Virus record (IMG/VR): IMGVR_UViG_3300026544_000001
Coordinates: 60,677 to 124,676 of that record
DNA from: a virus
Strand: one strand, 5' to 3'
DNA: 64,000 nucleotides
A program made the translations under genes and the position numbers. The notes under the pieces are model-generated. The model ran no database searches. It saw only the letters and a program-made list of their open reading frames with translations, and was not told where the DNA came from. How positions within the stretch are numbered: position 1 is the stretch's first letter; each line of letters begins with the position of its first letter. Below are positions 6,201 to 32,866 of the stretch, piece after piece.

Positions 6201-6357
6201 AGTTACTCTTATAGCTTATGGAGGAGCTGATGTATATACTAAGCAACAAATAGATACTAAGTTAGCATCACGTATAGTTGATTTAATACTGCATGGTGGA
6301 CATGCTGACACAACATATGATGATACTACAACAATAATAAATGGAGGAGCAGCATAA
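220..6357 (+). CDS. Giant acidic tail fibre/appendage protein
   Basis: 2045 aa. Contains ~10-residue repeats (NVNTVADNI-type), SEDNAK/ASAS coiled-coil repeats, two YDNFDDRYLGA..P..DNDGD.L..G..Y motifs typical of podovirus fibres, two Q.DWN.TD...YI.NKP motifs and three PTQQSV/PSQKAVK motifs. Confidence 0.8.
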   Translation: MADNFIDILKDIRGTGTDINAVGNADRAGELVSQDGGGIWQRFKDKEAAVTITHANVVTMSETVATTLYGTEGNNGELAKIATQVAAVNEVNEVLVAGDNNLFDDFNTKYSTFTNDDPDNPGLYERLVEYTDVLTHDGENKNINHLDISETPGSVVAVARDLEATDIDGTVRSGDMAGVSYIETVSIDMNSDSGMLPTIANDMLSTDSKIGIVSTDLSTNHYIEVVHNDLTSVDEDGVNISKIVSIGTNIQKGSSYSELLATGSDLLLGDTSHIVTVSNDIANVGYVSQDLQGKKYDGSDYESNIGESRIEVLGSNILKGTNSEMLIVGDDLLKEENSNVVKVSDIVDDVTTVAGKTTEITDLSQNMYKITSIYEDLEDTLKVADELDDVTIVGKDLDNRDANGDVYENGETSRVMTVSRNLAKSTESEVLLVGTDLYKDTDSSIKIVSNNIDNINAVKDDLDNDDSYVVAVGTDLVSDESEIRRLYTISDEVVAVSGNSTNINIISNDLQDKDKDGNDYEEGTSRIKVVGLNISKTDSETIAVGEDLLSTTSKIVSVYTNQDNIISIADNLAKGDDSTISIVATDLNRDDSRIYQVGVHIDNVIVTSDNIDSIVSVATDLDLGDDSTVKAVSDNMENVVNVGQDIIRVERVAQSADNVDNVSDNIGNVNIVGDDLALGNDSLIKQASDAVDDLQEIKDNIDDITTIADDLNSKDDDGNSTSKIITVSDNITNVIAVGNSIGNIDTVTKDLDKINRVYDSVDNVDRVEDSIANIDRVYTSADAIDRVKLSADNVDTIAEDIDNIDAVSDNVTKINTVADDITKVGTVADSIDNVNTVSDNLAKDDSEIKSVAGSIDSVEAVGAKISQVNTVSDNLDDGDDSTIKIVSDNITYVQDVSAHMDNVRDVSDSTDNIDSVAADVNLGDDSTIKITANNITDVNTVGTNIADVSTVSTDIASVNTTATDIGSIKTVASNLDDGDTSTVKIVSDNISNVDYVGGSIDNVNIVAENVDDGDTSTIKITADNIGSVATVGSAIDNVNTVADRDADIATIADDLNADTSTIKTVSDNITNVNSVSDISSDVSIVASRDADIGTVADDVELGDDSTIKIVADNIVDVQNAEENAILAKGYATADEDVEVEDGTYSAKNYSIKANASKVASANSESMSAEWADKDEDVEITDNAGKYSAKHHAIKADASAVAAKSSEDTTKDYLDQVSTIYDNFDDRYLGAFDTDPTEDNDGDALVMGMMYYNTDAKEIRFYDSENWDRPEFSASQSALAAADSQDAAKVSEDNAKISEDNSATSETNAKTSEDNAKTSEDNSKVSEDNAAASESKANEWAEKDGEVESGKYSSKHWADAASSSASSAKDSEDAAKVSEDNSKTSEDNALSSETKASKWASEVEDTEVETDKYSALHYAAKASASADSANTSETNSSASETLANKWAEEVEDTEVVDGKYSALHHAAKAESSASAASTSEINAKTSEDNANDSMNTAVSARDEAVAVYDNFDDRYLGAKDTAPDTDNDGDDLITGALYFDTDAGAMQVYDGTDWTAAYISDDKMLDKTKNLSDLDDTSIGRTNLGVEIGVDVLAYSADVVIDSAYVHTDNNYTTEYKDKLDGIADNAEVNVQSDWNVTDDTLDTYIANKPNVVVQESIIDEDDMASDSDVKIPTQQSVKAFASNAGNLTSGVIDDARLPDEITSNTSSASIWKTARKITLEGDTDGDVTIDGSADVTLTVTVKDDSHSHIIDNIDGLADSLDSKLDDSQLDTTSTLGTDDTKIPSQKAVKTYVDTSVSVDTTNFDGVLGSNEDTIQKAFDKLDDIVLTSTMEDLTNVSVTDITASQILAWDNDNTVWKNIDIPESGEYNVQADWNETDTAVDSYILNKPDVVTVDRILDEDDMDSDSNTSVPTQQSVRAYVEAMTSQADANAKLTKVFQEVAADGQTEFKFASDEIKYLVDSISVFTDGVISDIAYTADDGVKIVFDQGLEVDTEVTLIAYGGADVYTKQQIDTKLASRIVDLILHGGHADTTYDDTTTIINGGAA

Positions 6358-6833
6358 TGGCTACTAAAATACAATTACGAAATGATACATCTGTTAATTG
6401 GGCAGATGTAAATCCTACCTTAGCCAGTGGAGAGCATGGGTATGAAACTGATACGGGCAAACAAAAAATAGGTGATGGTACTACTGCATGGGTTGATCTA
6501 CCGTATAAAATAGTAGGTGAAGCTAATACATTCACAGCTAGTCAAAGAGGAGCTATAACATCTTTAGCAGATGATACAGTAGCTTGGGATTTTAGAACAA
6601 CTAATAATTACAGTGTTAGTTTAACTGCTGATGCTGATATAACACTAGCTACTGATGGTGCTTTAGGTTGTACTGGTCAAGGTGGTATGTTTACTGTGAC
6701 TACAGCTGAGCACATAACTGGATGGAGTGCTGAGTTTAAATGGAAAACTGAACCAACTGACTTAAGTGGTGTTGAGAGATTTGCTTATTTTGTAGAAGCT
6801 GAAGATACAATAGCTATTGGTAGGATTCAATAA
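6357..6833 (+). CDS. Tail fibre protein with Mtd-type N-terminal domain
   Basis: The N-terminus KIQLRNDTSVNWADVNPTLASGEHGYETDTGKQKIGDGTTAWVDLPY matches the major-tropism-determinant/hyaluronidase N-terminal anchoring motif. Translationally coupled (TAATG). Confidence 0.75.
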   Translation: MATKIQLRNDTSVNWADVNPTLASGEHGYETDTGKQKIGDGTTAWVDLPYKIVGEANTFTASQRGAITSLADDTVAWDFRTTNNYSVSLTADADITLATDGALGCTGQGGMFTVTTAEHITGWSAEFKWKTEPTDLSGVERFAYFVEAEDTIAIGRIQ

Positions 6834-9800
6834 TGAGTATAGTTAACGGTATGGGTGGTATGTTTGGAGGGTGTACATTTCGCCCTCAGTTAGGATGTAC
6901 AACTACAAGTATAGTAGATAATACTGATCCATTTGGTGATGGTAGTTTAATAGCTAAGTATCTATTAGATGGAGATGCTACTGATTTGTGTGGTAATTAT
7001 GATAGCGATAGTGAAAATTATAGCACCTATTTAAGTGGGGTGTATAATGATTGTATTGCATTTACTGATAAAACTGGGTATGTAAATGTTCCTAATATAG
7101 GTCCTATATGTGACTATTCAAAATCGTGGACTGTTAGTTTTGCGTGGAAATGGGATGGCGAACAGCCTAATAGTAAATATTGGTTTCTTATCCACATAAA
7201 TGATTTAGCTATAGAATGGGCTAATAATGCTAACGACGGTGAGATATATTTTGCGTTACTAAACGGTGGTACAGGTGATGTTATAGATAGACGCTTTGAT
7301 GATGATACATTATTCACTGATAACAACTGGCATCATACAGTAATAGTACATAAAGAAGGTGTAGATGATTTATTTATTACTATAGATGGTGGTGTATTAA
7401 CTGAAGAGGATGCTGGATTACACGATAATGGTACATTTTATCGTACCGATAATATGAGGATAGGTAATACCGCAGATGATGAGGATAAAGTGAGTGATAG
7501 TGGTCTCATAGATCAAGTTGAAATATACAACAGAGCATTAAATCCTCAAGAAGTACAAATGCTATATACTCAAAGTAAATACATAGCTGATCCAACACAA
7601 TCAATACCAGGTTTAGTAGCACATTACCCATTAGATGGTACAGCAGAGGATATACAAGGATATGGAGCTAATGAAAGTGGTGTGGAGTACAATGGAGTAG
7701 CATTTGTAGATGAGACTAAGTTTGGCGGTAGTAAGGTAGCTGTGTTTGATGGTAGTGATGATTATGTGAAGATCCCTATAATTGGCTTATCACCAAGTAA
7801 TTACACAATGACAGCTTGGGTAAAAACCACAGGTAGTGGTATATTTACGTCTATGTTATCTGATTCTTTTTGTTACGCTCAAGTAAATGATGATGGTTAT
7901 TTAAGATCTTATGACCTAAATGAGGAAGTTATAGGAAGCACTATAGTAAATGATGGAAAATGGCATTTCCTTACTGTTGTTAAAGATAACGGAGTGCAAT
8001 CTGTGTGGGTGGATAGTATAAAAGAAGCTGAAAAAGATAATGGAGATAATGGGGATAGTGGAGATAGAATAACATGTATAGGTTGTTATAATACTGAAAG
8101 TTCTTTTTTATCTGGTTTTATAGCAAGAGTTGGTTTTTATAATAAAGCTTTATCAGATAGTGAAATAACTGACCTATACAATCAAGAGAACGAAACAACT
8201 GATGGGTTGATTGCATATTACCCACTAGATGGTGATGCAAGTGATTATAGTACAAGTAACAATGCTGTATTGGATGGTACAATAAATGGTGATGTAAGCT
8301 TTGCTAATGATGATGACTATGGAGATAGTGTAGCATCATTTGATGGTGATGGGGATTATGTTAGTACTCAAATAGTACCTGCAGGAGGAGATAAAACATT
8401 ATCGTGTTGGTTCAATATGAATGGAACTTCTGATACTCAAGGATTGATATCGTTTCCTACAACTGCTAACGAGTATCAAGGAACATCATTAATAATTGAT
8501 GGGGATAAATTAGAGGTTAGTGGTAGAAATGGAGATGGTGCTTTTAAGTCAACTTCAGTTGATTTTACTACCACAAATGAATGGCATCATGCAGTTGGTG
8601 TATTGTCAGGTGCAGTATTAACACTATACTTAGATGGTGAGGATGTTGCTACACTAGATATGACTGATGTATCTGATGATAAAGATGGGGTTGTTATAGG
8701 GTGTGTAAATGGAGATTCTGTAAGTTATTATACAAACGGCTCAATAGCCAATGTCCAAATATTCAACAGAGCATTAACAAGTGATGAAGTTAATAAACTA
8801 TATAATAAAGAAACAATAACATCAGGATTAATAGCTCATTATCCATTAGCTGAAGATGCAACTAATAAAGCAGGATATTATGGAACTGAGAATGGTGGAT
8901 TGATCTATAGTGAACAATATGGTGATAGTGTTGGAAGCTTTGATGGTGTTGATGACTATATAGAGACTACTGAAATGTCATTAGCTTCAGAGTTCACTGT
9001 TACTGGTTGGGTTAAGGTTATTGACTTAGATAGTGATGAAGACGTGGTTATCGCTATAAATTGGAATGCAGATGCAAGTACGAGATTTGGTATAAAGAGT
9101 GATTCTGACGACGATACATCATTATCTATACAATGTGGTGATGATGATGCTTGGCATAGTATACCTGGTGCTATTGATAATACTTGGATGTTTATATCAG
9201 TTACGTATGATGGTACTGATACAGTATCAAAAGTATATGGCGAAACTGAAGTTGCATTTACTACGAATGTAACATTAGATAATAGTAAAGTGTGTATAGG
9301 TAATTTCAATTCTGATTCTAGTGGATATTTCAATGGAAATGTAGCCAATGTTAGAATATACGACAAAGCACTAACAGCAGAACAAATAACAGACTTATAC
9401 AATAAGAAAGATGTAACTGATGGATTAGTAGCTCACTATCCATTGACTAAAGAATGGAGAGCTAGTGATAGATGGGTTGCATATAATGGTACTGAAGTTA
9501 GTAATGTTTATGAAGAAGACTCTATTAGTGTAGTGTCTAAATTTCCATCAGATGTAAATTCAAGAATAGCGCTTAATCAAAAATTCAATAAAACATATAC
9601 TTATGGGTTTTGGATTAAAATGCCAACAGATGATACTACTTTTGTACCTTTGTCTGTATATGAAGGTGATGATGCTAGAGGGTATTTCAACTTAAATAGA
9701 GATGATGAACAAGGTTCAATTATAACTGCTTATAATGATGGTAGTTGGACCATATCAGATAAACTTACAGGTGCATATACCGATATAAAAGAATGGACTT

Positions 9801-10663
9801 ATCTAGTATTTGTGTGTAAAACAGATAATGTAGATGTATATGCAGATGGAATATATACAGGTAATATAACATCATTACCTATTGAAGAAAGGGATTTATA
9901 TATAATGGGTGGTGGCCCTAGTAATGATAGTTCTGATGATGATGTTTATATCAAAAATGTACGAATCTACAACAGAGCTTTAACAGAAGATGAAATATCT
10001 ACTATATACAACTACGAGAAAGTAACTAGAAATATAGTAGTAGATAGAGGATTGGTAGCTTATTATCCGCTAAAAGATAACAGTAATGATCATTGGGTTA
10101 ATCAGTTAGATGGAACTGATAATGGTGATGTAAGTTATGATGGAGTTAGTGCTAGTTTTGATGGAGATGGTGATTATATAAAACTCCCTAATATCACACA
10201 GGATACCAGTAGAAGTATGTGCTGTTGGTTAAAAACTGTAGATACTAATACCCATTATTTTATAACAAATAAAGATAACTCAAGCACTAGTGATGATATA
10301 GGAGAGTCTATACAGATGTCTGGAGATAATTTAGTTGCTAGTGCTAGATGGGCTGTTCAAGGAGAATCTGCTACTATTGATTCAGGTATCTCACCAGCAT
10401 CAGATATTTGGTATTTTGCTTGTGTGGTTGTAGACGCTGATGCTTCAACAATGACATTTTATGTTGGTGATACTTATTCAGATACTGCGGATGTAACTTT
10501 TAAAGCTACAGATGAAGACAAATGTATGATAGGTGCTATAGATGACAGTGGTGCTACAGGTTTCGCTAACGGAAAGATATCAAACGTACGTATTTACAAT
10601 AGAGTACTAAGTCCAGAAGAAATTACAACAATATACAATACAGAAAAGGGAGAATTTGAATAA
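6833..10663 (+). CDS. Multi-LamG (concanavalin A-like lectin) virion adhesin, six domains
   Basis: Six repeats starting L(I/V)A(H/Y/K)Y(P/L)L and ending (I/F)(Y/F)(N/D)(R/K)(A/V)L...E(I/V)..(L/I)Y. Most contain FDG.DDY and WH/W.F motifs of LamG_3 domains. Confidence 0.85.
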   Translation: MSIVNGMGGMFGGCTFRPQLGCTTTSIVDNTDPFGDGSLIAKYLLDGDATDLCGNYDSDSENYSTYLSGVYNDCIAFTDKTGYVNVPNIGPICDYSKSWTVSFAWKWDGEQPNSKYWFLIHINDLAIEWANNANDGEIYFALLNGGTGDVIDRRFDDDTLFTDNNWHHTVIVHKEGVDDLFITIDGGVLTEEDAGLHDNGTFYRTDNMRIGNTADDEDKVSDSGLIDQVEIYNRALNPQEVQMLYTQSKYIADPTQSIPGLVAHYPLDGTAEDIQGYGANESGVEYNGVAFVDETKFGGSKVAVFDGSDDYVKIPIIGLSPSNYTMTAWVKTTGSGIFTSMLSDSFCYAQVNDDGYLRSYDLNEEVIGSTIVNDGKWHFLTVVKDNGVQSVWVDSIKEAEKDNGDNGDSGDRITCIGCYNTESSFLSGFIARVGFYNKALSDSEITDLYNQENETTDGLIAYYPLDGDASDYSTSNNAVLDGTINGDVSFANDDDYGDSVASFDGDGDYVSTQIVPAGGDKTLSCWFNMNGTSDTQGLISFPTTANEYQGTSLIIDGDKLEVSGRNGDGAFKSTSVDFTTTNEWHHAVGVLSGAVLTLYLDGEDVATLDMTDVSDDKDGVVIGCVNGDSVSYYTNGSIANVQIFNRALTSDEVNKLYNKETITSGLIAHYPLAEDATNKAGYYGTENGGLIYSEQYGDSVGSFDGVDDYIETTEMSLASEFTVTGWVKVIDLDSDEDVVIAINWNADASTRFGIKSDSDDDTSLSIQCGDDDAWHSIPGAIDNTWMFISVTYDGTDTVSKVYGETEVAFTTNVTLDNSKVCIGNFNSDSSGYFNGNVANVRIYDKALTAEQITDLYNKKDVTDGLVAHYPLTKEWRASDRWVAYNGTEVSNVYEEDSISVVSKFPSDVNSRIALNQKFNKTYTYGFWIKMPTDDTTFVPLSVYEGDDARGYFNLNRDDEQGSIITAYNDGSWTISDKLTGAYTDIKEWTYLVFVCKTDNVDVYADGIYTGNITSLPIEERDLYIMGGGPSNDSSDDDVYIKNVRIYNRALTEDEISTIYNYEKVTRNIVVDRGLVAYYPLKDNSNDHWVNQLDGTDNGDVSYDGVSASFDGDGDYIKLPNITQDTSRSMCCWLKTVDTNTHYFITNKDNSSTSDDIGESIQMSGDNLVASARWAVQGESATIDSGISPASDIWYFACVVVDADASTMTFYVGDTYSDTADVTFKATDEDKCMIGAIDDSGATGFANGKISNVRIYNRVLSPEEITTIYNTEKGEFE

Positions 10664-21384: not shown

Positions 21385-21460
21385 GGGCCATTAACTCATT
21401 TGGTAGAGTATCTGCCTTGCACGTAGAAAGCGATCAGTTCGACTCTGATATGGTCCACCA
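21385..21460 (+). tRNA. tRNA-Ala(TGC)
   Basis: Cloverleaf with acceptor GGGCCAT/ATGGTCC carrying G3-U70, anticodon arm TCTGC-CTTGCAC-GTAGA, TTCGA T-loop and encoded CCA. Confidence 0.95.
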
Positions 21461-21523: not shown

Positions 21524-21599
21524 ACAGCTGTAGCTCAATCGGAAGAGCGTTCGCCTGTCACGCGAAAGGTAGCGGGATCATAACCCGTCAGCTGTGCCA
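21524..21599 (+). tRNA. tRNA-Asp(GTC)
   Basis: Acceptor ACAGCTG/CAGCTGT, anticodon arm TTCGC-CTGTCAC-GCGAA, GCCA end. The T-loop ATCATAA is atypical. Confidence 0.9.
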
Positions 21600-21664: not shown

Positions 21665-22513
21665 ATGGAATTCGCAGAAGACGAAAAAGGAATATGGTTA
21701 ATTCAGCCAAATGGACGAAGAAGAAGGGCAATCAAAACAAGTTGCAAACACTGCAATAAAGAATTCTTTACACCCAAGAGAACACAGATTGCTAAATTCT
21801 GTTCAAGAGAGTGTGTAATAAACTCAAAATCGCATAAACGAAGAATAACACAGTGTGTTAATTGTGGTAAAGATACTAAAAACGATAAATTTTGCAGTCA
21901 TAGTTGTAGTGCTGCTTTTAATAATAAAAGAAGAAAATTAAGTAAAGAGACGAAAGCTAAAATTAGTATTGCCGCAGTATCAAATATGAGTCATCTTAAT
22001 TTTATAGGAAATAAAAGTACCAAGCGTAGACCAAAGTATTGCAAATTGTATTTATGCAAATGTAAAAAATGTGGAAAAGATTTTCTATACAAAAGAAAAG
22101 ATAAAAAATGCTGTTCGGATAAATGCTACCATGAAACAGTAGGAGGGTATAGAGAAAACTCTGTAAGATCAAATGGTGCATATGTTACAGACTCGTTTGG
22201 TAATAATGTTTATCTGCAATCTTCCTATGAACTTGAATGTGCAAAAGTTCTTGATCGTAATAACATAAAATGGGTCAGGCCATCTTATTTAAAGTATAGA
22301 GATTCTTTAGGTAAAAATAGAAAGTATTATCCAGATTTTTACTTACCTAGTATAGATGTGTATCTTGATCCTAAAAATAAATTACTTATAGGTAGAGATA
22401 CTGAGAAAATACATTTAGCGTCTATTCAAAATAATGTAAAGATACTTATTCTTGGGAAAGATATAATATATAATGAAAAACTACTTTTAAAAACAGTATT
22501 AATCAAAACTTAA
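21665..22513 (+). CDS. Putative homing endonuclease (Zn-finger repeats + PD-(D/E)xK-like domain)
   Basis: Three CxxC...CS..C repeats, then QSSYE...YYPDFYLP...YLDPKN. Free-standing, next to the tRNAs. Confidence 0.75.
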   Translation: MEFAEDEKGIWLIQPNGRRRRAIKTSCKHCNKEFFTPKRTQIAKFCSRECVINSKSHKRRITQCVNCGKDTKNDKFCSHSCSAAFNNKRRKLSKETKAKISIAAVSNMSHLNFIGNKSTKRRPKYCKLYLCKCKKCGKDFLYKRKDKKCCSDKCYHETVGGYRENSVRSNGAYVTDSFGNNVYLQSSYELECAKVLDRNNIKWVRPSYLKYRDSLGKNRKYYPDFYLPSIDVYLDPKNKLLIGRDTEKIHLASIQNNVKILILGKDIIYNEKLLLKTVLIKT

Positions 22514-23329: not shown

Positions 23330-23585
23330 TATAATTAAGTATAGTAAAGCTATTAGAGCTTATAGTAATGAGATAGGAACTCCTATTGTAGCTGATATGG
23401 ATATAGGCGAAATAGCTATGTACTGGTATGACAAGTACTGCGAGTTAAAAGAAGTAGAAATAAATAACTTTGCACAAGGTATGGAGTATATGGCTAGAGC
23501 TACTGCAGCTGAAAGTAAAGCTAATGCCTATGCAGAAGCACTGGAAAGTGTACTACTTGTTAGCAGACCTAAGAGGTTATCATGA
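23322..23585 (+). CDS. Hypothetical protein
   Basis: 87 aa ORF coupled to the spanin gene. Confidence 0.5.
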   Translation: MSNIIKYSKAIRAYSNEIGTPIVADMDIGEIAMYWYDKYCELKEVEINNFAQGMEYMARATAAESKANAYAEALESVLLVSRPKRLS

Positions 23586-23836
23586 ATACAGTAATACTAT
23601 ACGGATTAGTTATTTCTATTATGAGTTTCTTATATATAGATGTACAAGCTAAGGATAAAGAGATAGCTGATCTTGAGAATAAACTAGTCAACCAGAAAGC
23701 TTATCTAGAAGATAAAGTTAAGAAAGTTGCATTTAATGTAAAGATGCTTACTAAGAAACAATCTATAGAGGAGAAGATTAACTATGACAAGAATAGCTCT
23801 AGTGTTAATATCAATAGCTTACGTATTTACTATTAG
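23582..23836 (+). CDS. Inner-membrane spanin (Rz-like)
   Basis: N-terminal TM helix followed by a coiled coil. Overlaps a lipoprotein gene out of frame. Confidence 0.7.
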   Translation: MNTVILYGLVISIMSFLYIDVQAKDKEIADLENKLVNQKAYLEDKVKKVAFNVKMLTKKQSIEEKINYDKNSSSVNINSLRIYY

Positions 23837-24062
23837 TGGATGTGGTACTGAAGCAACTCCTGCAGTACGTCAAAGATTTGAAATGCAGAAAATAGATCTA
23901 CCAGAAGGTAGTGTGTATGTAGAAGTAGATAGTGTGGAAACTAGAACTAAATGTACACCAGTTGTGTTAGAAGTAAGTAAAGTACTTAGAGGGGTAATAG
24001 GTTTCTATGAGTATCAAGTAGATGAGTATAATAAGGCAGACAATAATGAAAGTCATAAATAA
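23784..24062 (+). CDS. Outer-membrane spanin lipoprotein (Rz1-like)
   Basis: Signal peptide with lipobox ISGC. Overlaps the 3' end of the Rz-like gene. Confidence 0.7.
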   Translation: MTRIALVLISIAYVFTISGCGTEATPAVRQRFEMQKIDLPEGSVYVEVDSVETRTKCTPVVLEVSKVLRGVIGFYEYQVDEYNKADNNESHK

Positions 24063-24624
24063 ACTTATTGAAGATAAGATGGATGAAGCAGATAAGTTAC
24101 ATCTACATAATGTTAATTGCATAGCTACGTTATTAGCTAGTATTATGATGTTAGATGATTATGATCTAATGGTAGTTAGTATAGCTGCAGGTATACATGA
24201 CATAGGTAAGATACAACTAGATCAGGATGTACTGAATGCAGAAAGAAGGCTTACCGAGGAAGAGTATAAACACGTTAAGCAACATAGTCATAATAGCTCA
24301 GAACTATTCATACGTAATGTATCAGATAGTATGGACACTAACCTAGTGATAGCTATATCAAAAGCAATAATGTATCATCATGAAAGAGAGTCAGGAGAAG
24401 GTTACCCTGGAGGACTCAAAGGGCGTGCTATACCTATTCATGCTAAAATAATAGCTGTAGCTGATGTGTACGATGCATTAAGTAGCAAAAGATGTTATAA
24501 GGATAGTTGGGATACTGAAGAAGTAGATAAACATTTCATTGAAAACAGTGGTAAACTGTATGATAGAGATGTAGTTAAAGCATTATTAGGATGCACATAC
24601 AATATAAGGAAGTTATACAAATGA
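24022..24624 (+). CDS. Stand-alone HD-GYP cyclic-dinucleotide phosphodiesterase
   Basis: IHDIGK, VKQH, YHHER, GEGYPGGL, IIAVADVYDAL..KRCYK: the full HD-GYP motif set. The true start may be the second Met. Confidence 0.9.
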   Translation: MSIIRQTIMKVINKLIEDKMDEADKLHLHNVNCIATLLASIMMLDDYDLMVVSIAAGIHDIGKIQLDQDVLNAERRLTEEEYKHVKQHSHNSSELFIRNVSDSMDTNLVIAISKAIMYHHERESGEGYPGGLKGRAIPIHAKIIAVADVYDALSSKRCYKDSWDTEEVDKHFIENSGKLYDRDVVKALLGCTYNIRKLYK

Positions 24625-24827
24625 AAAAGCAAGATATAAAATTAACTGTAAGATACATAGTACTAGGTTTCATAATGTACCTAGCGTATAGAGTAACTAG
24701 TGCTGAGTATATAATTAGTTTAAAAGATGTAAACTCAACTACATTACAAGTAGTAGTAGGTGCAATCTTCGGAGCGCTTACAATGATTACTGGCAAGCAT
24801 TTTTCTGAATCTATAGATAAAGATTAA
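24591..24827 (+). CDS. Putative holin
   Basis: Small protein with two TM segments, inside the lysis cassette upstream of the endolysin. Confidence 0.55.
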   Translation: MHIQYKEVIQMKKQDIKLTVRYIVLGFIMYLAYRVTSAEYIISLKDVNSTTLQVVVGAIFGALTMITGKHFSESIDKD

Positions 24828-24854
24828 TATTAGTTCATACTTAGAAGGATAAAA

Positions 24855-25190
24855 ATGATTTTACATGAAGATATTTTAAATAATAAGTCACCAGGGAATG
24901 GTAAAATAATAAGTACTTTTAAAAAGTTACCTGACAGGATTAAATCTATACATGGTGATAAGCGTATTAGAGAGGTAGCTAGAAAAGCTGGACTAAAGTA
25001 TAAAATACATTATATGATTAAAACAAAAAATGCTATGGGTATTGAGAAGAAGCTTCTTACTTTTGGTAAGCCAGTAGATGCAGGTAATATAGACGGAAAA
25101 ACAGAATTCAGAGAAATAGACGATAAGTTATTCGGAAGCTTTAGTTGGGTGTTAAAAGAACACTTCAACACAACAATAGATAAGGATTAG
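24855..25190 (+). CDS. Hypothetical protein, T5orf172-like remnant
   Basis: AMGIEKKLL...DGKTEF resembles the C-terminal half of T5orf172 domains. Confidence 0.4.
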   Translation: MILHEDILNNKSPGNGKIISTFKKLPDRIKSIHGDKRIREVARKAGLKYKIHYMIKTKNAMGIEKKLLTFGKPVDAGNIDGKTEFREIDDKLFGSFSWVLKEHFNTTIDKD

Positions 25191-25192
25191 AT

Positions 25193-25588
25193 ATGGGTTA
25201 TAGATTTGGTAAGACTAGCTTAAGTAGGCTGGTAGGAGTAGATAATAAATTAGTTGAAGTTGCAAAGACAGCTATTAACATAAGTAAACAAGACTTTACA
25301 ATAGTAGAAGGATTACGTACACCTGAGAGACAGCTAGAGTTGTATGAAAAAGGTATGAGTGAGTTAGATGGTTATAAAAATATAAGCTCACATCAATTGG
25401 GAGAAGCTATAGATATAGCTCCATATAAAGATGGTAAACTACTATGGTCGTTAACTAACAGTAGAGAATGGTTAGAAATAGGTAGAGCAATGCTAAGGGC
25501 AGCTAGATTGCATGATGTTGATATAGAATGGGGAATAGGTTATAACATAGGTACTGGTTATGATGCTCCACATTTTCAACTAAAATAA
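25193..25588 (+). CDS. Endolysin, peptidase M15 (L-Ala-D-Glu peptidase-like)
   Basis: FG..S..RL.GV...L, DFTIVEGLRT.ERQ..LY..G, S.H..GEAIDI, WG and DAPHFQL motifs. Confidence 0.9.
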   Translation: MGYRFGKTSLSRLVGVDNKLVEVAKTAINISKQDFTIVEGLRTPERQLELYEKGMSELDGYKNISSHQLGEAIDIAPYKDGKLLWSLTNSREWLEIGRAMLRAARLHDVDIEWGIGYNIGTGYDAPHFQLK

Positions 25589-25604
25589 TAAGTCTAAAGT
25601 ATGT

Positions 25605-25635
25605 AAGCTGAATGTAATATAAATTAGCCTATAAT
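25605..25635 (+). promoter_or_regulatory. Putative promoter of the signalling operon
   Basis: TATAAT at 25630-25635 with an upstream TAAG, in the gap after the endolysin. Confidence 0.45.
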
Positions 25636-25674
25636 GATTTATAAAATAACGAATATTTAACACAGGTAGATATA

Positions 25675-25929
25675 ATGGATAAAAGAATTGCTAAATTAGA
25701 GTCTGAATTACAACAGCTGCAAATAACAATGAAGATGATGGATGGTACCTTAGAGATACTTAATGGTACACTATCTCGTTTTAATGAATCAGTAAATCAT
25801 ATAAATGAAATAGAAAATATACTATATAAGAAAGAACAAAGAAGAACCATAATATGTGCAAGTGCTATAATACTTAGCGTAGGTTCTATTGCTGGTATAT
25901 TAACTGCAATTACAATGTTTAAAGGGTAG
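25675..25929 (+). CDS. Coiled-coil protein with C-terminal TM helix
   Basis: Heptad N-terminus and hydrophobic C-terminus (XhlA/holin-like architecture). Confidence 0.55.
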   Translation: MDKRIAKLESELQQLQITMKMMDGTLEILNGTLSRFNESVNHINEIENILYKKEQRRTIICASAIILSVGSIAGILTAITMFKG

Positions 25930-25933
25930 TAAG

Positions 25934-26404
25934 ATGAGTAAGTATACTGAAATAGAAACTAAAATAAATAAGATGTCAAAAGACTTTAAAGATCAAATAC
26001 GTGCACTTACAGTTGTCGGTCAGAGTGAAATAAGTGATTTTGCAATAGACATAAAAACAGATGAGAATAAAGATGTAGTTAGATTCGTTATCCATGCAAA
26101 TGATGTACTTAATACAAAACAAATACATATAACAAACGCTATAGTAGATATACTTGAAGAGATGCTAAATATTAAAAAAGAAGTTGTTGCAGGTTTAGAT
26201 GAAATAGAAAACAGAAGAATAACGCCTAAGAAAGTTGTATCTAAAGGATGGGGTATAATAGAAAAAATAACGGGGTTAAAAACCATACTAGCTTTGATTG
26301 TTATACTTGGTATACTTGGTATATTTATTACTATGCCAGATCAGACAATAGAGTTATTTAGAAGTGGCGGTTTAAAAGAATTATTAAAAGGTATATTAAG
26401 ATGA
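25934..26404 (+). CDS. Membrane protein with C-terminal TM helix
   Basis: TM segment TILALIVILGILGIFI. Overlaps the response regulator start. Confidence 0.55.
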   Translation: MSKYTEIETKINKMSKDFKDQIRALTVVGQSEISDFAIDIKTDENKDVVRFVIHANDVLNTKQIHITNAIVDILEEMLNIKKEVVAGLDEIENRRITPKKVVSKGWGIIEKITGLKTILALIVILGILGIFITMPDQTIELFRSGGLKELLKGILR

Positions 26405-27063
26405 GTATGTTTAATTTTATAAAAAAGTTATTTAACAAAGAGGAATCTGAAAGTATAATAGAGTACAACCTTGAGGAAGAAACATTGGAACCTGATGACA
26501 AGCCTTTGATATGTGCAGATTGTAATCTGCAGAAGATAGGTAATTGTAATCCGTGTATAATGGATAATATAGCATTTGTTAATAGTTACCATGCTAATAG
26601 AAAAACTCTAATAATTGTAGATGATAACAGAGGTTCAGCATCATTTCTAGCAGATGACCTGTATAGAGAGATAGGTGAGGATATTAACATCATAACATTT
26701 ACTAGTGAGTATGCAGGTTTTATATTGGAAGAGATGTTAGATAAGACTGGTATAGGTGTAGACTATGCTATACTAGATATAACCCTAGGTGGAATAAGAA
26801 GACTAGGTGGAAAGAATGTTGTATACGATGGAGTAGATATATATAAAATACTAATGGAAAAGAATAGTGAAACAGAGTATCTATTCTATACAAGTAATAA
26901 TATGAATAAACAGTTGAAAACTATCAATGCTTTAATAGTAAAGTATAATAAAACTAATAGAGGTAATGATATAGAAAATAAGATAATCTATAAAGCTAGT
27001 AAATTTTCAAAACAAGATATAGAGAGCATCATTAGTAAATTAAATATTAAAAGGAGCAGATAA
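26401..27063 (+). CDS. CheY-like response regulator receiver protein (no output domain)
   Basis: LIIVDD acidic pocket, ILDITL phospho-acceptor Asp, DG.D, FYTS Thr and IYK Lys. N-terminal extension contains CADC-x7-CNPC. Confidence 0.8.
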   Translation: MSMFNFIKKLFNKEESESIIEYNLEEETLEPDDKPLICADCNLQKIGNCNPCIMDNIAFVNSYHANRKTLIIVDDNRGSASFLADDLYREIGEDINIITFTSEYAGFILEEMLDKTGIGVDYAILDITLGGIRRLGGKNVVYDGVDIYKILMEKNSETEYLFYTSNNMNKQLKTINALIVKYNKTNRGNDIENKIIYKASKFSKQDIESIISKLNIKRSR

Positions 27064-27674
27064 TGCCAGGTAGTTTAAAAACAACGTTACTTTCACTTCT
27101 TGTTATCTTTATAATCTTTGTTGGGTACGTAACAGGTAAAATGGTAGTAGAGAATATAGCTAGTAGTCAGAATATACTAAATCTTAACAGTGTATCTAAA
27201 TGTGCTAAGAAACTAACAAGATGTGATATTAGTAATGTTGACGAAAAGCAAATAGTTGAAGTTATGAATATATGTGCAAAGAATGTTAGATCAATTGGTC
27301 AAACTGGAGATATGTTTGTTATACGTAAAAGTGATGCTAAAATAGTATGGGATGCTTCTCAAGATTGTAGTGTATCTGATAGTAATAAAGCTTTCCTTAC
27401 CAAAGAAGGTGTGTGTAAGTTATTTACAAAACCAGATACGTGTAAACAAGCATCTTATATAATGAGAAATGAACCTCCTAGAGGGACATTAAAGTGGACA
27501 TTTGATGATAGTGAAGAAATAGTTAATTATCTATACCTAGCTTGTTCTATAGATAATGATCATTACATACTTGGTTGTGGTGCACAAACAGATGAGATAA
27601 TAACTACACTTAGGGTATTTATTATACCTGTACTTTCTCTTCTAGTAATCTTACTTATCGTTATATCAGTATAG
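27063..27674 (+). CDS. Two-TM periplasmic sensor, Cache-like domain
   Basis: TM-periplasm-TM topology. GDMFVI...IVWD...G.LKW.F...E.V.Y...YILGCG...DEI resembles the Cache fold. Cys-rich, with no cytoplasmic domain. Confidence 0.6.
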   Translation: MPGSLKTTLLSLLVIFIIFVGYVTGKMVVENIASSQNILNLNSVSKCAKKLTRCDISNVDEKQIVEVMNICAKNVRSIGQTGDMFVIRKSDAKIVWDASQDCSVSDSNKAFLTKEGVCKLFTKPDTCKQASYIMRNEPPRGTLKWTFDDSEEIVNYLYLACSIDNDHYILGCGAQTDEIITTLRVFIIPVLSLLVILLIVISV

Positions 27675-27686
27675 AGTTCATTAGAT

Positions 27687-28871
27687 ATGTTAATACATAA
27701 GATAATAATAATTATAGCATTCACAATTGTTATGACGCTTGTGGAGCAAGTAGTTAATAACATGTATAAACTACTTAATTCACAGAAGTACTACTATTTA
27801 CAATACAATAAAGGTAAAGAGATAACTAGGAGAGAGTGTGTAAAACTATTTAACTGTAAATATGTTATTAAGATAGATAGCTATAAATTTGTAAAAAAGA
27901 CTTTTGATAAAGGTTATGTTATATCTAAAGAAGAGGTTATTCCTACATGGAAAGCAATACTTGATAATAAAGTATACATAGATCTAAATACAATGATGGT
28001 TGGTGTTAGAGCTGGTAAGGATAGAATAATTTTTAAAAACATATTTATCATTACAGGTAATAATATAAGAACAATTATGGTTAGTAGCCCTATATATGTG
28101 TTGTTTATACTCTATATGGTTATTGTACTTAATGATGGAAAAAGAAAACATGATATAATTAAAAATAGAATGAATGAGTACAGTGTTGAGTTAAGAGGTA
28201 TTATAATGTTTAGTGAAAATCTTAATCATGAAGTTAACAATGCATTAAGTGTAATAAATAATAAAGCTCGACTTGCATTGGAAAAAGTTAATAGAACATG
28301 TATGGGTAAAGAGATAATAAACAATGATTTTGAATATATATTTGATGCATGTGATCAGATAGAAACTATAACAAAGAAGTTACAAGGTATAAAACACTTT
28401 AAGCATAATAGCGATCATAGAACATTATATGAGGTTATACAAAAATCATTTGATTTCGCTACACTAGGTTCACCTAATGTAAAAACTACTATAGATGAAA
28501 AACTACTTAGTTATGAAGCTAAAGGTATTAGTAATATTGACCTTCATGGTAGATTACTAAACCATATAAAGAATAGTATAGAGGCTAAAGCTAGTGAAAT
28601 AAAAATAGTACTAGGTAAACTAAAAGGGGATACTATCGGGTTATATATTATAGATAATGGTAATGGTGTACCTGCAGAAGTTAGGAATACTTTATTTGAT
28701 GAAAATGTAAGTAGTAAGAAAGATAAAAACTATGTAGGTGGTAATGGTATGTATATTAACAAACACATAATGAAAGCCTATGGAGGGGATATACGTCTTG
28801 TTAGTAGTATACCTGGTAAAACCGTATTTGAATTATCATTTAAATACAGAAAGATATCAAGCAAAAATTAA
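27687..28871 (+). CDS. Membrane-bound sensor histidine kinase
   Basis: Two TM helices. H-box NLNHEVNNAL, N-box LLNHIKNSIEA, G1 DNGNGVP, F LFD...SSK, G2 GGNGMYI...YGGDI. Confidence 0.9.
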   Translation: MLIHKIIIIIAFTIVMTLVEQVVNNMYKLLNSQKYYYLQYNKGKEITRRECVKLFNCKYVIKIDSYKFVKKTFDKGYVISKEEVIPTWKAILDNKVYIDLNTMMVGVRAGKDRIIFKNIFIITGNNIRTIMVSSPIYVLFILYMVIVLNDGKRKHDIIKNRMNEYSVELRGIIMFSENLNHEVNNALSVINNKARLALEKVNRTCMGKEIINNDFEYIFDACDQIETITKKLQGIKHFKHNSDHRTLYEVIQKSFDFATLGSPNVKTTIDEKLLSYEAKGISNIDLHGRLLNHIKNSIEAKASEIKIVLGKLKGDTIGLYIIDNGNGVPAEVRNTLFDENVSSKKDKNYVGGNGMYINKHIMKAYGGDIRLVSSIPGKTVFELSFKYRKISSKN

Positions 28872-28918
28872 GAAGGATTAGTATATAATTACATATAATT
28901 TATAAAAGGAGAACAACC

Positions 28919-29374
28919 TTGACTCAACAACAAGCAGAAGAACTATTTGAATCTATAGGTAAATCAGTAGATGAAAGATTAAAAAAAGATAGGTTAACTG
29001 TACTTATAGGGCAAGAGAAGTTCTATAAACTTAAGTTAGAGACTATAGGTAAAGAAACTGATGAGTTAGTTGAATACTTTCTAAAAAAATCAAATATTAC
29101 AACTAATAAGAAAAGATCTCCTTGGTTAAACAAGGTATTAACTAAACTAGGTATGGTCCCTATATTAGTAGCACTAAGTATAACTAGTGTATCATACAGC
29201 AGTACTGTGGTGGTTAATGAAGATGTTATGATAGACTTAGCATTTGAGCCTAAACAATCTTTAACTTGTAAACTACTACATGAAGGTTGTGGTACAGATT
29301 TATACAAAAAACTTTGGGGTACAGATAAAGGTAACTTGAAGAATAACTATGGTATACTTTCTACAATAAGTTAA
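28919..29374 (+). CDS. Hypothetical protein
   Basis: TATAAT at 28884, AAGGAG RBS, TTG start. One hydrophobic stretch. Confidence 0.5.
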   Translation: MTQQQAEELFESIGKSVDERLKKDRLTVLIGQEKFYKLKLETIGKETDELVEYFLKKSNITTNKKRSPWLNKVLTKLGMVPILVALSITSVSYSSTVVVNEDVMIDLAFEPKQSLTCKLLHEGCGTDLYKKLWGTDKGNLKNNYGILSTIS

Positions 29375-29383
29375 GGAGTTGCC

Positions 29384-30037
29384 GTGAATATCAAAATATG
29401 TACAAAATGTAAACAAGAATTGACATTTGATAAATTTGCAAAAGCAAAGAAAGGTAAATTCGGTATAGAGGCTGTATGTAAAGAATGCAAAAAAATGTAT
29501 ACTAGAAGTGTAGATGGGTTAGTTAGAGAATTATTTAATCAACAGAAAAAATCTAGTAAACATAGAAATCAAGTAGGTACTGTAGAATATACACTTGAGG
29601 AATTACAATCTTGGTGCAAAGGTCAAAAAGAATTCAAGAATCTATATGATAATTGGGTAAAGTCTGACTATAACACTAAGTTGAGACCGTCGATAGATAG
29701 GCTTGATGACTATAAAGGTTATTCATTTGATAATATTCAACTGATGACATGGATAGAAAACAAGCAAAAGGGCCACGACTCTCGTAAAAATGGCAGCAAT
29801 AATAAAGATAGTAAGGCTGTGGTTCAACTAGATATGGATGGTAACTTTATTGCAGAGTTCTACTCTCAAAAAGAAGCTATGCGTCAAACTGGTATAAACC
29901 ATGCTAGAATATCTAAAGTATGTAGAGGCGATTGTACAACCAACCCTGTTGGTAAACAATATAAAAGCTTAAGTACAGGTGGTTTTAAGTGGATGTTCAA
30001 AACAGAATATGATAGCTTAAACCCTAATAATTTATAA
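29384..30037 (+). CDS. HNH-type homing endonuclease with NUMOD1/IENR1 domain
   Basis: CTKC...CKEC, then PSIDRLD..KGY..DNIQL.TW.EN..K. C-terminal VVQLD.DG.FIAEF.S..EA....GI....IS.VC. Confidence 0.8.
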   Translation: MNIKICTKCKQELTFDKFAKAKKGKFGIEAVCKECKKMYTRSVDGLVRELFNQQKKSSKHRNQVGTVEYTLEELQSWCKGQKEFKNLYDNWVKSDYNTKLRPSIDRLDDYKGYSFDNIQLMTWIENKQKGHDSRKNGSNNKDSKAVVQLDMDGNFIAEFYSQKEAMRQTGINHARISKVCRGDCTTNPVGKQYKSLSTGGFKWMFKTEYDSLNPNNL

Positions 30038-30056
30038 AACAAGAAAAGGATTTAAC

Positions 30057-31715
30057 ATGGCTGATAACGTGACTTCGGATGATTTAGAAAAGGCATTGAG
30101 TGATTTAGCAGAGTCTATGGGGCTTTCTGTAAAAGAATACGTAGAAGGTGGTTTCTTAGACCTAACAACATATAATGAGGCTCAATCAGCAGTAATTGCA
30201 AGATTAGATGCAATTGATGTAATTGATGCAGAAGATGATGTTGAAACAATAGCAGAGAAGCTTATTGCAATTAATAAAGTACTAAGTGATGATGATGGAG
30301 TATTACAAAATATTCTAAATATGATTAATGATAATCAATCACAAATCGTTACTGAGTCAGATAGAGCAAAAGGTGTTGAAGCTGGATTAAGAACAGATGT
30401 TGATAATGCTACTTCAAAAGGTAATGCTAATGAATCTGCAATCAATGATATCAAATCTGGTATAAGTGATTACAAAACTACTACTGAAGATAGATTCACA
30501 GCAGTAGAAGGTAGAGTTACAGATGATGAAGCTGCTATAGCTACATTAACTGCAGATGTTGATACAGAAGGTTCTGTAGCATACTCAGTTGAACAAGAAG
30601 CTATCAGAGCTAAATCAGTAAGTGGTAAACTTGCAGACTTATCTACAGATGATAAAGATTCATTAGTTGGTGCAATCAATGAAGTTCAAGCTGAAACAAT
30701 AACTGCTCAAGCTGGTGTTGATGGTTTAGTAACTAGAATGGGTTCTGCTGAAGAAGCAATCAATACAATTAATGGTGACGTAGATACTGATGGTTCTATG
30801 GCTAAAGCTATTAAAGTTGCTGATGATGCTGTAAGAGCTGACATTGCTGCTGATATTGAATCTACAAGAAGTGGATTACAAGATGGTATAGATGCTAACA
30901 CAGGTGCAATCGCTGTATTAAATGGTGATGACGAAACAGAAGGTTCTGTTGCAAAAGCTATCAAAGATGCTACTGGTGGAGATATCAGTGATTTAAGTGA
31001 TAGAATGGATGCTACTGAAGCTGCTACATCTACAAATAAATCATCTATTGATTTACTAAATGCTGATGATCAAACTGAAGGTTCAGTTGACTACAAAATA
31101 GCACAAGCTGCTGGTGAGTCAAATGAAGTTACTGATGCACTATCTGATAGAATCACAGTAAACGAAGGTGATTTAGCTACACTTAAAGGTGATGCTGAGA
31201 CTGAAGGTTCAGTTGCTAAACAAGTTGCTGATGCTAAAGCTGCTACTGATGCTGTAGTTGCTGATAACAAAGCTGCTATAGAGTCTACTGTATCTGATTT
31301 AGATGATAGAGTTGTTGCTAATAAAACTGCTGCTGCAGATGCACTAGCTGCTGCTAAAACTGAGTTAAGTGATTCAATCGCTGCTGAAGTAACTAGAGCT
31401 ACAGACGCTGAAGTTGCATTAGGTGATAGAGTTAAAGTTAATGAAGATATCTTAAATGATACAACAGATGAAGATGATAACCTAGTTAAAGGTATCGTTA
31501 CTAGAACATCTGATTTAGAGTCTGCATTAAGTGCACAAGCTCAAAAACAAATTGATGATCTTCAAGCTGCAATTGATGATTTAAAAGCTTACTCTGATTC
31601 AAATGATTTAAAAGCTGCTTCAATGGATATTTGTGGTGTTCACAATAAATTCAGAGGTGCTCTTGGATTAGGTGATAAAGACTGTGGTGGTGACGGAGAC
31701 GGTGAGGCTGTATAG
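30057..31715 (+). CDS. Long acidic coiled-coil fibre/whisker protein
   Basis: Repeated L.GD..TEGSVAK.I hinge motifs between heptad segments. Ala/Asp-rich, 552 aa. Confidence 0.7.
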   Translation: MADNVTSDDLEKALSDLAESMGLSVKEYVEGGFLDLTTYNEAQSAVIARLDAIDVIDAEDDVETIAEKLIAINKVLSDDDGVLQNILNMINDNQSQIVTESDRAKGVEAGLRTDVDNATSKGNANESAINDIKSGISDYKTTTEDRFTAVEGRVTDDEAAIATLTADVDTEGSVAYSVEQEAIRAKSVSGKLADLSTDDKDSLVGAINEVQAETITAQAGVDGLVTRMGSAEEAINTINGDVDTDGSMAKAIKVADDAVRADIAADIESTRSGLQDGIDANTGAIAVLNGDDETEGSVAKAIKDATGGDISDLSDRMDATEAATSTNKSSIDLLNADDQTEGSVDYKIAQAAGESNEVTDALSDRITVNEGDLATLKGDAETEGSVAKQVADAKAATDAVVADNKAAIESTVSDLDDRVVANKTAAADALAAAKTELSDSIAAEVTRATDAEVALGDRVKVNEDILNDTTDEDDNLVKGIVTRTSDLESALSAQAQKQIDDLQAAIDDLKAYSDSNDLKAASMDICGVHNKFRGALGLGDKDCGGDGDGEAV

Positions 31716-31825: not shown

Positions 31826-32866
31826 ATGAAAAAAGTAAAAAAAGCATTTAATGTAGAATATGATTTAACAAGTCAAGAGTTTAAAGAAACAAAGATGGAC
31901 ATGGTATCAGAAAAATGTCAAACAATGCATGGTGATAGTGTACTATGTAAAGTTATGACTTATTGTGTTCCAGATCATCAACTAGTTATTCATACTACTG
32001 CTGAGAATCAAGAGTTTATGGGTGCTCCAAGTATGGAACTAGCTATGAGACCATTAGCTGAACAATCGTTCTTAACAATGGACGATGATATGGTTAAAAC
32101 ATATGAGATCACAATTACAGCTAATACAGATCTACCTGATTATGTTACAGCACTGAACATAGCCCAAGCTAAAGCTGATAAAATGTTCGAAGAAGATGAT
32201 ACTAAAATACCTCTTGTTACTGTTATTGATTATAGATGGGGTAATTCTCCAGCTACAATAGGTGCTAGTATATTTACAAGTACAGATGAAGACGGTAATA
32301 GTATAAGTTTAATAGGTGCTACAGATAGTGCTGCAGTAGTTCATGTAGGTGATGCTGAAGCTGGTGCAAAGGCTGCTGCGTGTACATTATACTGTGAAAA
32401 ATGGGAAGATGGTGTTGACGATGTATTCGTAAAAGATTATAGTGACTCGTTTGCTTATGGGTATAGAGTGGAATGCGACCTAGAAGTAACTAGTGATGAT
32501 AAAAGTGGTTATATCTTTGGTGTGTACTACGCAGGAAAAGAGAGTTATGAAACAAATGGTATAACTTTATATATAGATGATGGAAAATTAACTCTTGATG
32601 CTGAAAAAGGTTCAGGGGATACTGTTCTTGTACATACTGATTTAGCTTTAGTAAAAGAGTCTACTCATTTAGTATATGATGCATACGTTACTTCAGATGG
32701 TAAGAAAAACGTATACATTAAATACGGAGATGAAGAAGTAACTTTAGAAGATACTGGTTGGGATACTGGTTGTAGCAGATTCTACATACCTATGAATGAC
32801 AACTGGTTAGAGGGTATGGTACTATCAGACTTCCAAATGACACAACATACAGAAGCACAAGAATAA
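31826..32866 (+). CDS. Virion adhesin paralog A (conserved N-terminus + ConA-like C-terminus)
   Basis: The first ~185 aa are highly similar to 36443-37612. The C-terminus is a distinct beta-rich domain. Confidence 0.6.
   Translation: MKKVKKAFNVEYDLTSQEFKETKMDMVSEKCQTMHGDSVLCKVMTYCVPDHQLVIHTTAENQEFMGAPSMELAMRPLAEQSFLTMDDDMVKTYEITITANTDLPDYVTALNIAQAKADKMFEEDDTKIPLVTVIDYRWGNSPATIGASIFTSTDEDGNSISLIGATDSAAVVHVGDAEAGAKAAACTLYCEKWEDGVDDVFVKDYSDSFAYGYRVECDLEVTSDDKSGYIFGVYYAGKESYETNGITLYIDDGKLTLDAEKGSGDTVLVHTDLALVKESTHLVYDAYVTSDGKKNVYIKYGDEEVTLEDTGWDTGCSRFYIPMNDNWLEGMVLSDFQMTQHTEAQE

Follow-up and report, generated by a model that had tools for sequence, protein, structure and literature searches.

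Receiver-only regulators such as CheY, Spo0F, DivK and CpdR act by protein-protein contact or as steps of a phosphorelay, and YycH and YycI are accessory membrane sensors of the kinase WalK. The decision systems known from phages, arbitrium and the VqmA-type receptors, are one-component systems. The Clostridioides difficile phage phiCDHM1 carries in its agr3 locus an AgrC kinase, judged to be host-derived, and no regulator, and action through AgrA of the host was proposed in the accessible part of its description (PMC3901668). PIT4 of phage LSL4 interferes with two-component systems of the host, according to the accessible part of that report (PMC10714779), and a survey of 224 jumbo phages proposed that HD-GYP proteins serve as a counter-defence against cyclic nucleotides and, in its accessible text, had a divergent receiver that was never linked to a kinase (PMC7824862). 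Here we describe a viral locus which codes for a stand-alone receiver, p220, and a membrane histidine kinase, p394, and which together with the gene of a small membrane protein, p156, recurs in other viral contigs. It lies in the window, by which the whole 64-kb stretch of DNA that was analysed is meant (positions 60677-124676, the last 64 kb of the 124,676-bp viral record IMGVR_UViG_3300026544_000001), within a unit of five genes in the order p84-p156-p220-p203-p394 (Table 1). The locus is a genuine two-component cassette, phage-specific and laterally shared, and probably a functional one.

In the open-access literature searched, supplements aside, no conserved phage kinase-receiver cassette was found described. 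Two-component parts have been seen singly in viral metagenomes before: the viral proteins closest in structure to p220 in BFVD (Tupanvirus, Feldmannia, Ectocarpus viruses and a Myoviridae sp.; E 7e-05 to 5e-03) are hybrid kinases of giant eukaryotic viruses or automatically named 'response regulators' of uncultured Caudovirales, with no cassette described for them. Among cellular pairs, HK853-RR468 of Thermotoga maritima (4jas, 3dge, 5uht) shares with the phage pair an H box of the E-N-x-x-H-E type in the DHp domain as well as the N, G1, F and G2 boxes of the CA domain, and RR468 (5uht_B) was among the matches of the p220 model. The phage pair differs in being encoded by a virus, in a receiver which is missed by Pfam, carries a hairpin past the strand of the phospho-accepting aspartate and begins with an N-terminal extension of about 65 residues, in the lack of a DNA-binding or enzymatic output on p220, and in the tail-anchored companion p156, which is of no known family. 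As a receiver-only protein p220 resembles CheY, Spo0F, DivK and CpdR, and CheY and Spo0F were among its best structural matches, but no partner of the FliM, Spo0B or ClpX type is conserved with it. The fourth protein, p203, is comparable by description with YycH and YycI, being a separate membrane-anchored extracytoplasmic protein of PAS/PDC-like type encoded by a kinase gene; it stands apart from them by its two transmembrane (TM) segments and its single Cache-like module. The agr3 locus of phiCDHM1 is like the present one in that a phage carries a histidine kinase with a proposed role in signalling, but there, in the accessible part of the paper (PMC3901668), the system is of the Gram-positive peptide type, whereas here the kinase is paired with a receiver from the same locus and the searches gave no close relative in cells.

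The conserved cassette of companion, receiver and kinase

Scanned with the kinase alignment, IMG/VR gave 24 other loci. Their contigs measure 10-273 kb, and seven of these are at least 97% complete. The receiver gene was found directly upstream of the kinase gene in 21 of the 24 by BLASTP and in another two (L020 and L027) by clustering. The remaining contig, L013, is cut at the kinase by the contig end, so that the arrangement holds in 23/23 informative loci. A hidden Markov model (HMM) of the p156 family showed that in 19 of the 23 loci with upstream DNA the receiver gene is immediately preceded by a p156 gene. The conserved core consists of three genes, those of p156, the receiver and the kinase, which is a new result; in the window they are closely packed and co-oriented and are probably co-transcribed. 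The earlier note, a model's reading of the bare sequence, had missed this unit of three. It had proposed a search of other phages for a kinase, a receiver and a Cache protein next to lysis genes, and of this combination the kinase with its receiver was recovered throughout (23/23), the Cache-like p203 only in L007 and lysis genes in 5/25 loci, while p84 recurred nowhere.

The carriers are diverse. Only one record in 25, that of the window, has the N4-type major head protein and virion RNA polymerase, L009 and L014 possess a gene for a multisubunit-type RNA polymerase, and other carriers have PolB or ClpX-like genes; therefore the carriers are not a single phage lineage. The cassette moves among unrelated phage lineages and is no recent host capture. 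A search of 50,697 GenBank phage records with the region and the kinase (BLASTN and TBLASTN) gave no match. Three GenBank records, one of them a Salmonella genome, were reached with the more canonical kinase relative P0005 and were rejected as no real relatives, the matches being confined to the CA domain with coverage of 24% or less.

The presence in p394 of two TM segments (residues 1-19 and 130-148; TM segments were called throughout by a Kyte-Doolittle scan) and of H, N, G1, F and G2 boxes confirmed the intact membrane histidine kinase reported earlier. The HATPase_c match had an E value of 9.5e-12 (45.8 bits against a Pfam cut-off of 26.4 bits). The boxes were placed at H181 (28227-28229) within the H box S-E-N-L-N-H-E, at 292-296 (N), 323-327 (G1), F337 and 352-354 (G2). 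A search of 5.8 billion proteins gave 12 kinase relatives, all metagenomic and 20-54% identical to p394. E177, N178, H181 and E182 of the H box were invariant in 12/12 relatives, as were N292, H293, N296, D323, G325, G327, G352 and G354, and F337 was nearly invariant (at least 90%). When the profile of this family was compared with the PDB, the stretch from the H box through the CA domain aligned with HK853 (4jas_A) at E 2.7e-14. In NCBIfam, residues 178-386 were matched by kinases of the PgtB, AtoS and RstB type, far under the cut-off of each named kinase. Judged from these motifs, p394 is a HisKA-type (class I) kinase with a family of its own, for which autophosphorylation is predicted. Its periplasmic loop spans approximately residues 20-129 and contains the cysteines C51 and C57; an ESM Atlas search with residues 1-160 returned sensor-domain leads only, all sub-threshold.

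The receiver domain of p220 covers approximately residues 66-215, with the acidic pair D74/D75 (26620-26625), the phospho-acceptor D126 (26776-26778), T164 (26890-26892) and K198 (26992-26994). It was aligned with one relative from a word-indexed search and 21 from the neighbours of kinase genes (n=23). D74/D75 and D126 were invariant in 23/23 receivers, position 164 was Thr in 21/23 and Ser in 2/23, and K198 was aligned in 17/23, most of the others having a Lys a few columns away. An AlphaFold model (pLDDT, the predicted local distance difference test, 85.3) showed alternating strands and helices in the (beta-alpha)5 order, with D74/D75, D126, T164 and K198 at the ends of beta1, beta3, beta4 and beta5, respectively, and an additional beta-hairpin at 132-141 past beta3. 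Foldseek gave 72 PDB matches at E <= 0.001, of which the top ones listed were nearly all receivers, 1sul_B at rank 49 being one that is not; RcsB, LiaR, Spo0F and CheY were among these receivers (E from 3.9e-05, TM-score by target up to 0.73). An F-x-K-K-x-F type motif is present in the N-terminal extension, which has a conserved hydrophobic-K-K-hydrophobic start. A four-cysteine cluster (CxxC-x7-CxxC) is found in 7/23 receivers and is formed in p220 by C38, C41, C49 and C52. No output domain was found on p220, and an alignment search among longer proteins gave no fused receiver protein at E <= 0.001, which is weak evidence.

The third protein, p156, has a helical N-terminal part of about 115 aa followed by a TM segment (117-135), and the N-terminal part would be cytoplasmic. 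No family above cut-off was found for p156 in Pfam, PHROG or NCBIfam. A role as a histidine phosphotransfer (Hpt) protein was considered and ruled out, there being no conserved His and no invariant column in 19 sequences. A complex prediction for p220 (60-220) with p156 (1-116) returned a score of 0.00, 'no answer', and weighs neither way.

We hold it fairly probable that p220 and p394 are a functional cognate kinase-receiver pair and the phage's own. The pairwise distances of receivers and kinases agree closely (Mantel r 0.84, a value reached in 0/2000 permutations of 21 pairs), so receiver and kinase were inherited as a unit; this correlation is one of co-inheritance and not of contact. Several points weigh against the reading. 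On p220 the Response_reg model (PF00072) stayed at 14.1 bits (E 0.054), short of its cut-off of 30.2 bits, only 5/23 receiver relatives reached E <= 0.1 with it, and by sequence the receiver profile matched the PDB weakly (CheY, E 0.003). Because of the score below the gathering cut-off, p220 was filed as a divergent receiver-fold family and not as a member of PF00072. Of the CheY-like receiver without output domain claimed in the earlier note, the fold in the model and all five residues stood. Pfam HisKA (PF00512) gave no match to p394 at E <= 1 and reached E <= 0.1 in only 3/12 kinase relatives, the best at 0.0018. Among the four models proposed for a check, HATPase_c alone passed; Response_reg remained below cut-off on p220, while at E <= 1 HisKA gave no match to p394 and Cache none to p203. 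p156 was not found in 4/23 loci, and its alignment is without any invariant residue, which leaves no site to name for catalysis or binding. p203 is missing from 22/23 other informative loci (L007 is the sole exception) and is therefore dispensable for the cassette.

The transcription signals do not set the unit apart beyond chance either. The TATAAT on which the earlier note had based a promoter of the unit's own is present at 25630-25635, but the hexamer is no more frequent than chance (145 in the window against 202 expected). Promoter-like sites in 23400-30200 numbered 36 compared with 37.8 in shuffles, and the scan of the same interval gave no terminator-like site flanking the unit on the + strand. 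The scans of sequence collections, finally, use short peptide patterns or BLAST thresholds by which distant cellular relatives are missed, and 'absent' in them means that no close relative was found. When 185,579 bacterial and archaeal species, each represented by a single genome, were scanned with such patterns, only two contigs from metagenome-assembled genomes (MAGs), of 1.4 and 5.8 kb, were found.

The five-gene unit and its surroundings

As the earlier note had it, the unit 25675-28871 consists of five closely packed open reading frames (ORFs) on the + strand and begins directly downstream of an endolysin gene, 86 bp past the M15 endolysin. The spacings between successive genes are +4, -4, -1 and +12 nt. 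The coordinates of the unit and its neighbours are collected in Table 1.

Table 1. Genes of the five-gene unit and other features of the window (positions are those of the window)
Feature	Position	Strand	Remarks
tRNA-Ala(TGC)	21385-21460		
tRNA-Asp(GTC)	21524-21599		
HNH-type homing-endonuclease-like gene	21665-22513		
Spanin-like gene 1, 84 aa	23582-23836		N-terminal TM segment and coiled coil
Spanin-like gene 2, 92 aa	23784-24062		lipobox (..TISGC); starts within gene 1
HD-GYP phosphodiesterase, stand-alone	24022-24624	+	HD_5 3.7e-24; between spanin-like pair and holin-like gene
Two-TM holin-like ORF	24591-24827		from sequence features
M15-family endolysin	25193-25588	+	M15_4 (Pfam) 1.2e-06, phrog_465 4.1e-37; context, outside conserved cassette
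p84, 84 aa	25675-25929	+	tail-anchored, N-terminal coiled coil
p156, 156 aa	25934-26404	+	tail-anchored; first gene of conserved three-gene cassette
p220, 220 aa	26401-27063	+	stand-alone divergent receiver
p203, 203 aa	27063-27674	+	two TM segments, Cache/PDC-like fold
p394, 394 aa	27687-28871	+	HisKA-type sensor histidine kinase by sequence, two TM segments
HNH-type homing-endonuclease-like gene	29384-30037		NUMOD1, phrog_1035; between cassette and Ala-rich repeat protein gene
Ala-rich repeat protein	30057-31715		

The two small TM proteins of the unit, p84 and p156, were found as claimed, each with one C-terminal TM segment (58-76 in p84). p84 matched PHROG families of unknown function only weakly (phrog_5553, E 7e-4), and none of the 24 related loci has a relative of it; it is therefore a genome-specific addition.

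p203 has a single extracytoplasmic PDC/Cache-like domain of about 160 aa between two TM segments (5-23 and 185-203), with eight Cys outside and, unusually, no cytoplasmic domain. Its model (pLDDT 91.2) has a long N-terminal helix (4-52), five strands forming an antiparallel sheet (84-88, 93-97, 140-147, 150-158 and 168-175) and a last helix (176-202), which is the arrangement of the Cache/PDC fold. The PDB matches, at E 4e-4 to 1e-3 and with TM-scores of only 0.3-0.5, comprised PAS, LOV and FixL domains and an extracellular PDC domain, 3lib. The ESM Atlas leads all belonged to Cache families (feature scores 0.93-0.97), and in the Atlas structure rows dCache_1 was aligned with a TM-score by query of 0.63-0.75. 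No Pfam Cache model matched p203 at E <= 1, and NCBIfam gave no match, so p203 is called Cache-like by fold and is not taken as a member of a curated Cache family. In this sense the two-TM, Cache-like periplasmic protein of the earlier reading was upheld. In a search of 1.84 billion representatives, 38 proteins were related to p203 at E <= 0.001, its own cluster possibly included. A scan with the trimmed alignment gave only the L007 record again among viral contigs, and one metagenome contig of 1.1 kb. In both genomes with p203, that of the window and that of L007, the gene stands between the receiver and kinase genes. In a metagenomic protein of 2081 aa, P0044, 14 stretches match the Cache-like domain of p203, which thus also exists as a long tandem array.

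The record is 94% complete by CheckV. Its virion RNA polymerase is of N4 type (phrog_2206, E 6.9e-68 and 1.6e-137 in two adjacent ORFs), and other genes of the genome code for a DNA polymerase of family A, primase, ribonucleotide reductase and large terminase. The window itself holds the genes for the portal (phrog_1216, 9.8e-150), the major head protein and the tail fibre proteins. The major head protein is about 25% identical to its counterparts in N4-like phages (470 matching GenBank records). A giant virion RNA polymerase, an N4-type head protein and a portal, by which Schitoviridae are recognised, were all found; since the genome has 124.7 kb compared with 70-79 kb in the listed N4-like relatives, the membership is distant at most. 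The genome is that of a distant, enlarged N4-like phage, and the phage origin assumed in the earlier note was borne out by its virion RNA polymerase, terminase, portal and major head protein. Every gene of the structural and lysis block of the window is on the + strand. The GC content is 0.27-0.39 along the whole window with no break at the five-gene unit, and at 25-29 kb it is 0.27-0.31 with a positive GC skew, as in the flanks. The virion RNA polymerase, which lies outside the window (G000:C1 155-10546, locus L003), is a frame of 3514 codons with one in-frame TAA, giving ORFs of the same frame at 155-6616 and 6626-10546; this could mean a split gene, read-through or a sequencing error.

The spanin-like and holin-like genes are named from sequence features and their identities are putative; a PHROG search of the putative holin and spanins matched no family. 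The spanin-like pair and the cysteine-rich extracytoplasmic domains indicate that the host is Gram-negative. In two DNA runs, X1 and X2, no contig spanned the junctions 25588/25675 or 28871/28919, X1, which may be the source, giving only short pieces. X2, a sequencing run of another study, gave three contigs of 151 nt inside p203 and the kinase with 0-1 differences. The label of either run is 'hydrothermal vent metagenome', on which no statement about habitat is based.

In L009 and L014 a gene for an Ala-rich repeat protein follows almost directly after the kinase gene. A protein of 346 aa encoded downstream of the cassette in the window (31826-32866) is 60% identical over 126 residues to L030:9-896 of G024, a record that is not N4-like and also has the cassette, an M15 endolysin and an HD-GYP gene; phage lineages may have swapped a larger, mosaic block here. 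In ten loci (L008, L011, L012, L017, L018, L019, L024, L025, L026 and L030; e.g. L011:8875-9171) the kinase gene is followed at once by a gene for a secreted protein of about 90 aa, with a signal peptide and a conserved K-[ST]-x-K-G-W-[IL]-R, and in 8-9 loci an unknown family of about 400 aa comes next. Neither family is present in the window's genome. The secreted protein might act as a ligand or as an accessory protein in the periplasm. In L010, L011, L012 and L017 the cassette has as its divergent neighbour a gene for a ClpX-like AAA+ protein with a zinc finger of the ClpX type (e.g. L011:5017-6192, minus strand). As a general partner of the receiver, by analogy with CpdR, it was ruled out, being present in 5/25 records and not in the window's genome.

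Proposed mechanism and alternative explanations

Observed were the conserved order of the genes, the catalytic residues of the proteins and their folds. In the mechanism proposed here, the loop of p394, about 110 residues in length, would sense a cue in the periplasm of the infected Gram-negative cell, and in the window's genome p203 may serve as an accessory co-sensor that contacts the kinase in the membrane or the periplasm. The kinase would autophosphorylate at H181 and the phosphoryl group would then be passed to D126 of p220. Because p220 has no output domain it is expected to act through protein-protein contact, and the phosphorylated form might bind p156 at the inner membrane and so affect a membrane process late in infection. 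Action of the receiver on p156 is a tentative proposal; p156 is the likeliest partner because it is the only constant companion of the pair. A late timing of the cassette is suggested by the co-orientation of its genes in the structural and lysis block.

The earlier note suggested that the phage relays a cue to the neighbouring lysis machinery or to motility and chemotaxis of the host; a coupling to motility was not supported. In the first case the cassette would be a lysis-timing circuit, in which a superinfection, density or nutrient cue lets the receiver tune the holin, endolysin or spanins in a manner like lysis inhibition. The surroundings in the window fit this, as the unit comes right behind the endolysin and after the spanin-like pair and the two-TM holin-like gene, and so do those of L009 and L014, where the cassette stands immediately after a divergent endolysin and a GTA_holin_3TM/phrog_3427 holin, of L023, with an M15 endolysin two genes upstream, and of L030, with one 2.4 kb downstream. 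All proteins of the unit except the receiver are, moreover, membrane proteins. However, these five are the only ones of the 25 loci with an endolysin or holin within about 5 kb of the cassette, and the proposed relay was not supported by so sparse a linkage to recognisable lysis genes. The other neighbours are replication genes (PolB, SNF2 helicase, clamp loader), ClpX-like genes, homing endonucleases and structural genes. When 132 proteins of 110-420 aa, taken from the 233 flanking ORFs (60-900 aa) of the 24 other loci, were scanned with PHROG, the only lysis families listed were phrog_465, phrog_315 and phrog_3427, twice each and in loci already known; lysis families were counted here among the 25 commonest of 93 matched, so that single hits may be hidden. 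With the putative holin and spanins of the window also lacking a family match, we consider a lysis-timing circuit rather unlikely.

The pair could also be directed at the host, the kinase phosphorylating or dephosphorylating host regulators or the receiver draining phosphate from host kinases. A phosphate sink would fit a receiver that has no output domain in a genome with no second receiver or kinase (a six-frame search gave no match for PF00072 and one for PF02518). PIT4 of phage LSL4 and the AgrC of phiCDHM1, which in the accessible text has no regulator, are precedents (PMC10714779; PMC3901668). Yet kinase and receiver are always adjacent (23/23 informative loci) and diverge together, as in a closed cognate pair, and no close cellular relatives were found whose partners could be mimicked. 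We judge such a hijack of host signalling distinctly unlikely.

A further candidate for the output is the HD-GYP protein encoded 1.8 kb upstream of the receiver gene on the same strand. In a split system of the RpfG type the receiver would activate this stand-alone enzyme, and c-di-GMP or a cyclic-oligonucleotide defence signal would be degraded. The locus resembles RpfC/RpfG in having a kinase, a receiver and an HD-GYP protein within 5 kb. The best match of the latter, which has no receiver itself, was the HD-GYP half of the NosR-family REC-HD-GYP model (E 8.5e-28, positions 176-354 of 422), which indicates that its cellular relatives are receiver-controlled. In contrast to RpfG, receiver and HD-GYP are separate here, with five genes between them (holin-like, p111, endolysin, p84 and p156), and a receiver fused to HD-GYP or constantly linked with it was not found: HD_5 occurs in 3/25 records, or 2/8 of those at least 90% complete. 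The other two have the gene tens of kb away from the cassette and paired with a PAS domain or a GGDEF-like gene of its own; these phages, too, touch on signalling of the cyclic-di-GMP type. G018 (L033:1386-2453) has a PAS-HD-GYP fusion of 355 aa, and in G024 (L034:1245-2283) the HD-GYP gene overlaps a small GGDEF-like gene ('RIGGDEF'). No GGDEF gene was found in the search of the window's genome. The split RpfG-like system thus appears very doubtful.

An artefact or dead cargo, that is, a chimeric assembly with host DNA or a decaying recent host capture, is largely refuted already and hardly credible, for although there is one assembly of the genome and public contigs left its junctions unbridged, GC content and GC skew are continuous, the genes are co-oriented and tightly coupled, the cassette recurs in 24 other viral contigs, the invariance of the catalytic residues across relatives speaks against decay, and instead of a near-identical host operon only the two short MAG contigs were found.

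Significance for phage biology

The reading preferred here, a cognate kinase-receiver pair belonging to the phage, can be extended. The cassette might be a sensory organ of the phages' own that is swapped among unrelated large virulent phages and reads the periplasm or the surroundings for a late decision, such as when to lyse, or whether to exclude or answer other phages. The secreted K-G-W-I/L-R protein of the ten sister loci could then be a phage-made ligand, which would amount to phage-to-phage communication in Gram-negative hosts. This extension is speculative, and we give it a small chance.

The known phage decision systems use one-component receptors, and others are borrowed single parts like the AgrC of phiCDHM1; set against these, the present locus offers a complete, conserved and co-diverging pair. 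With it come new families, namely a divergent receiver with an inserted hairpin, a tail-anchored companion and a stand-alone membrane-anchored Cache-like protein. Phages of this kind probably sense conditions around the infected cell, and if this is true, lytic phages keep a transmembrane sensing system of their own during infection.

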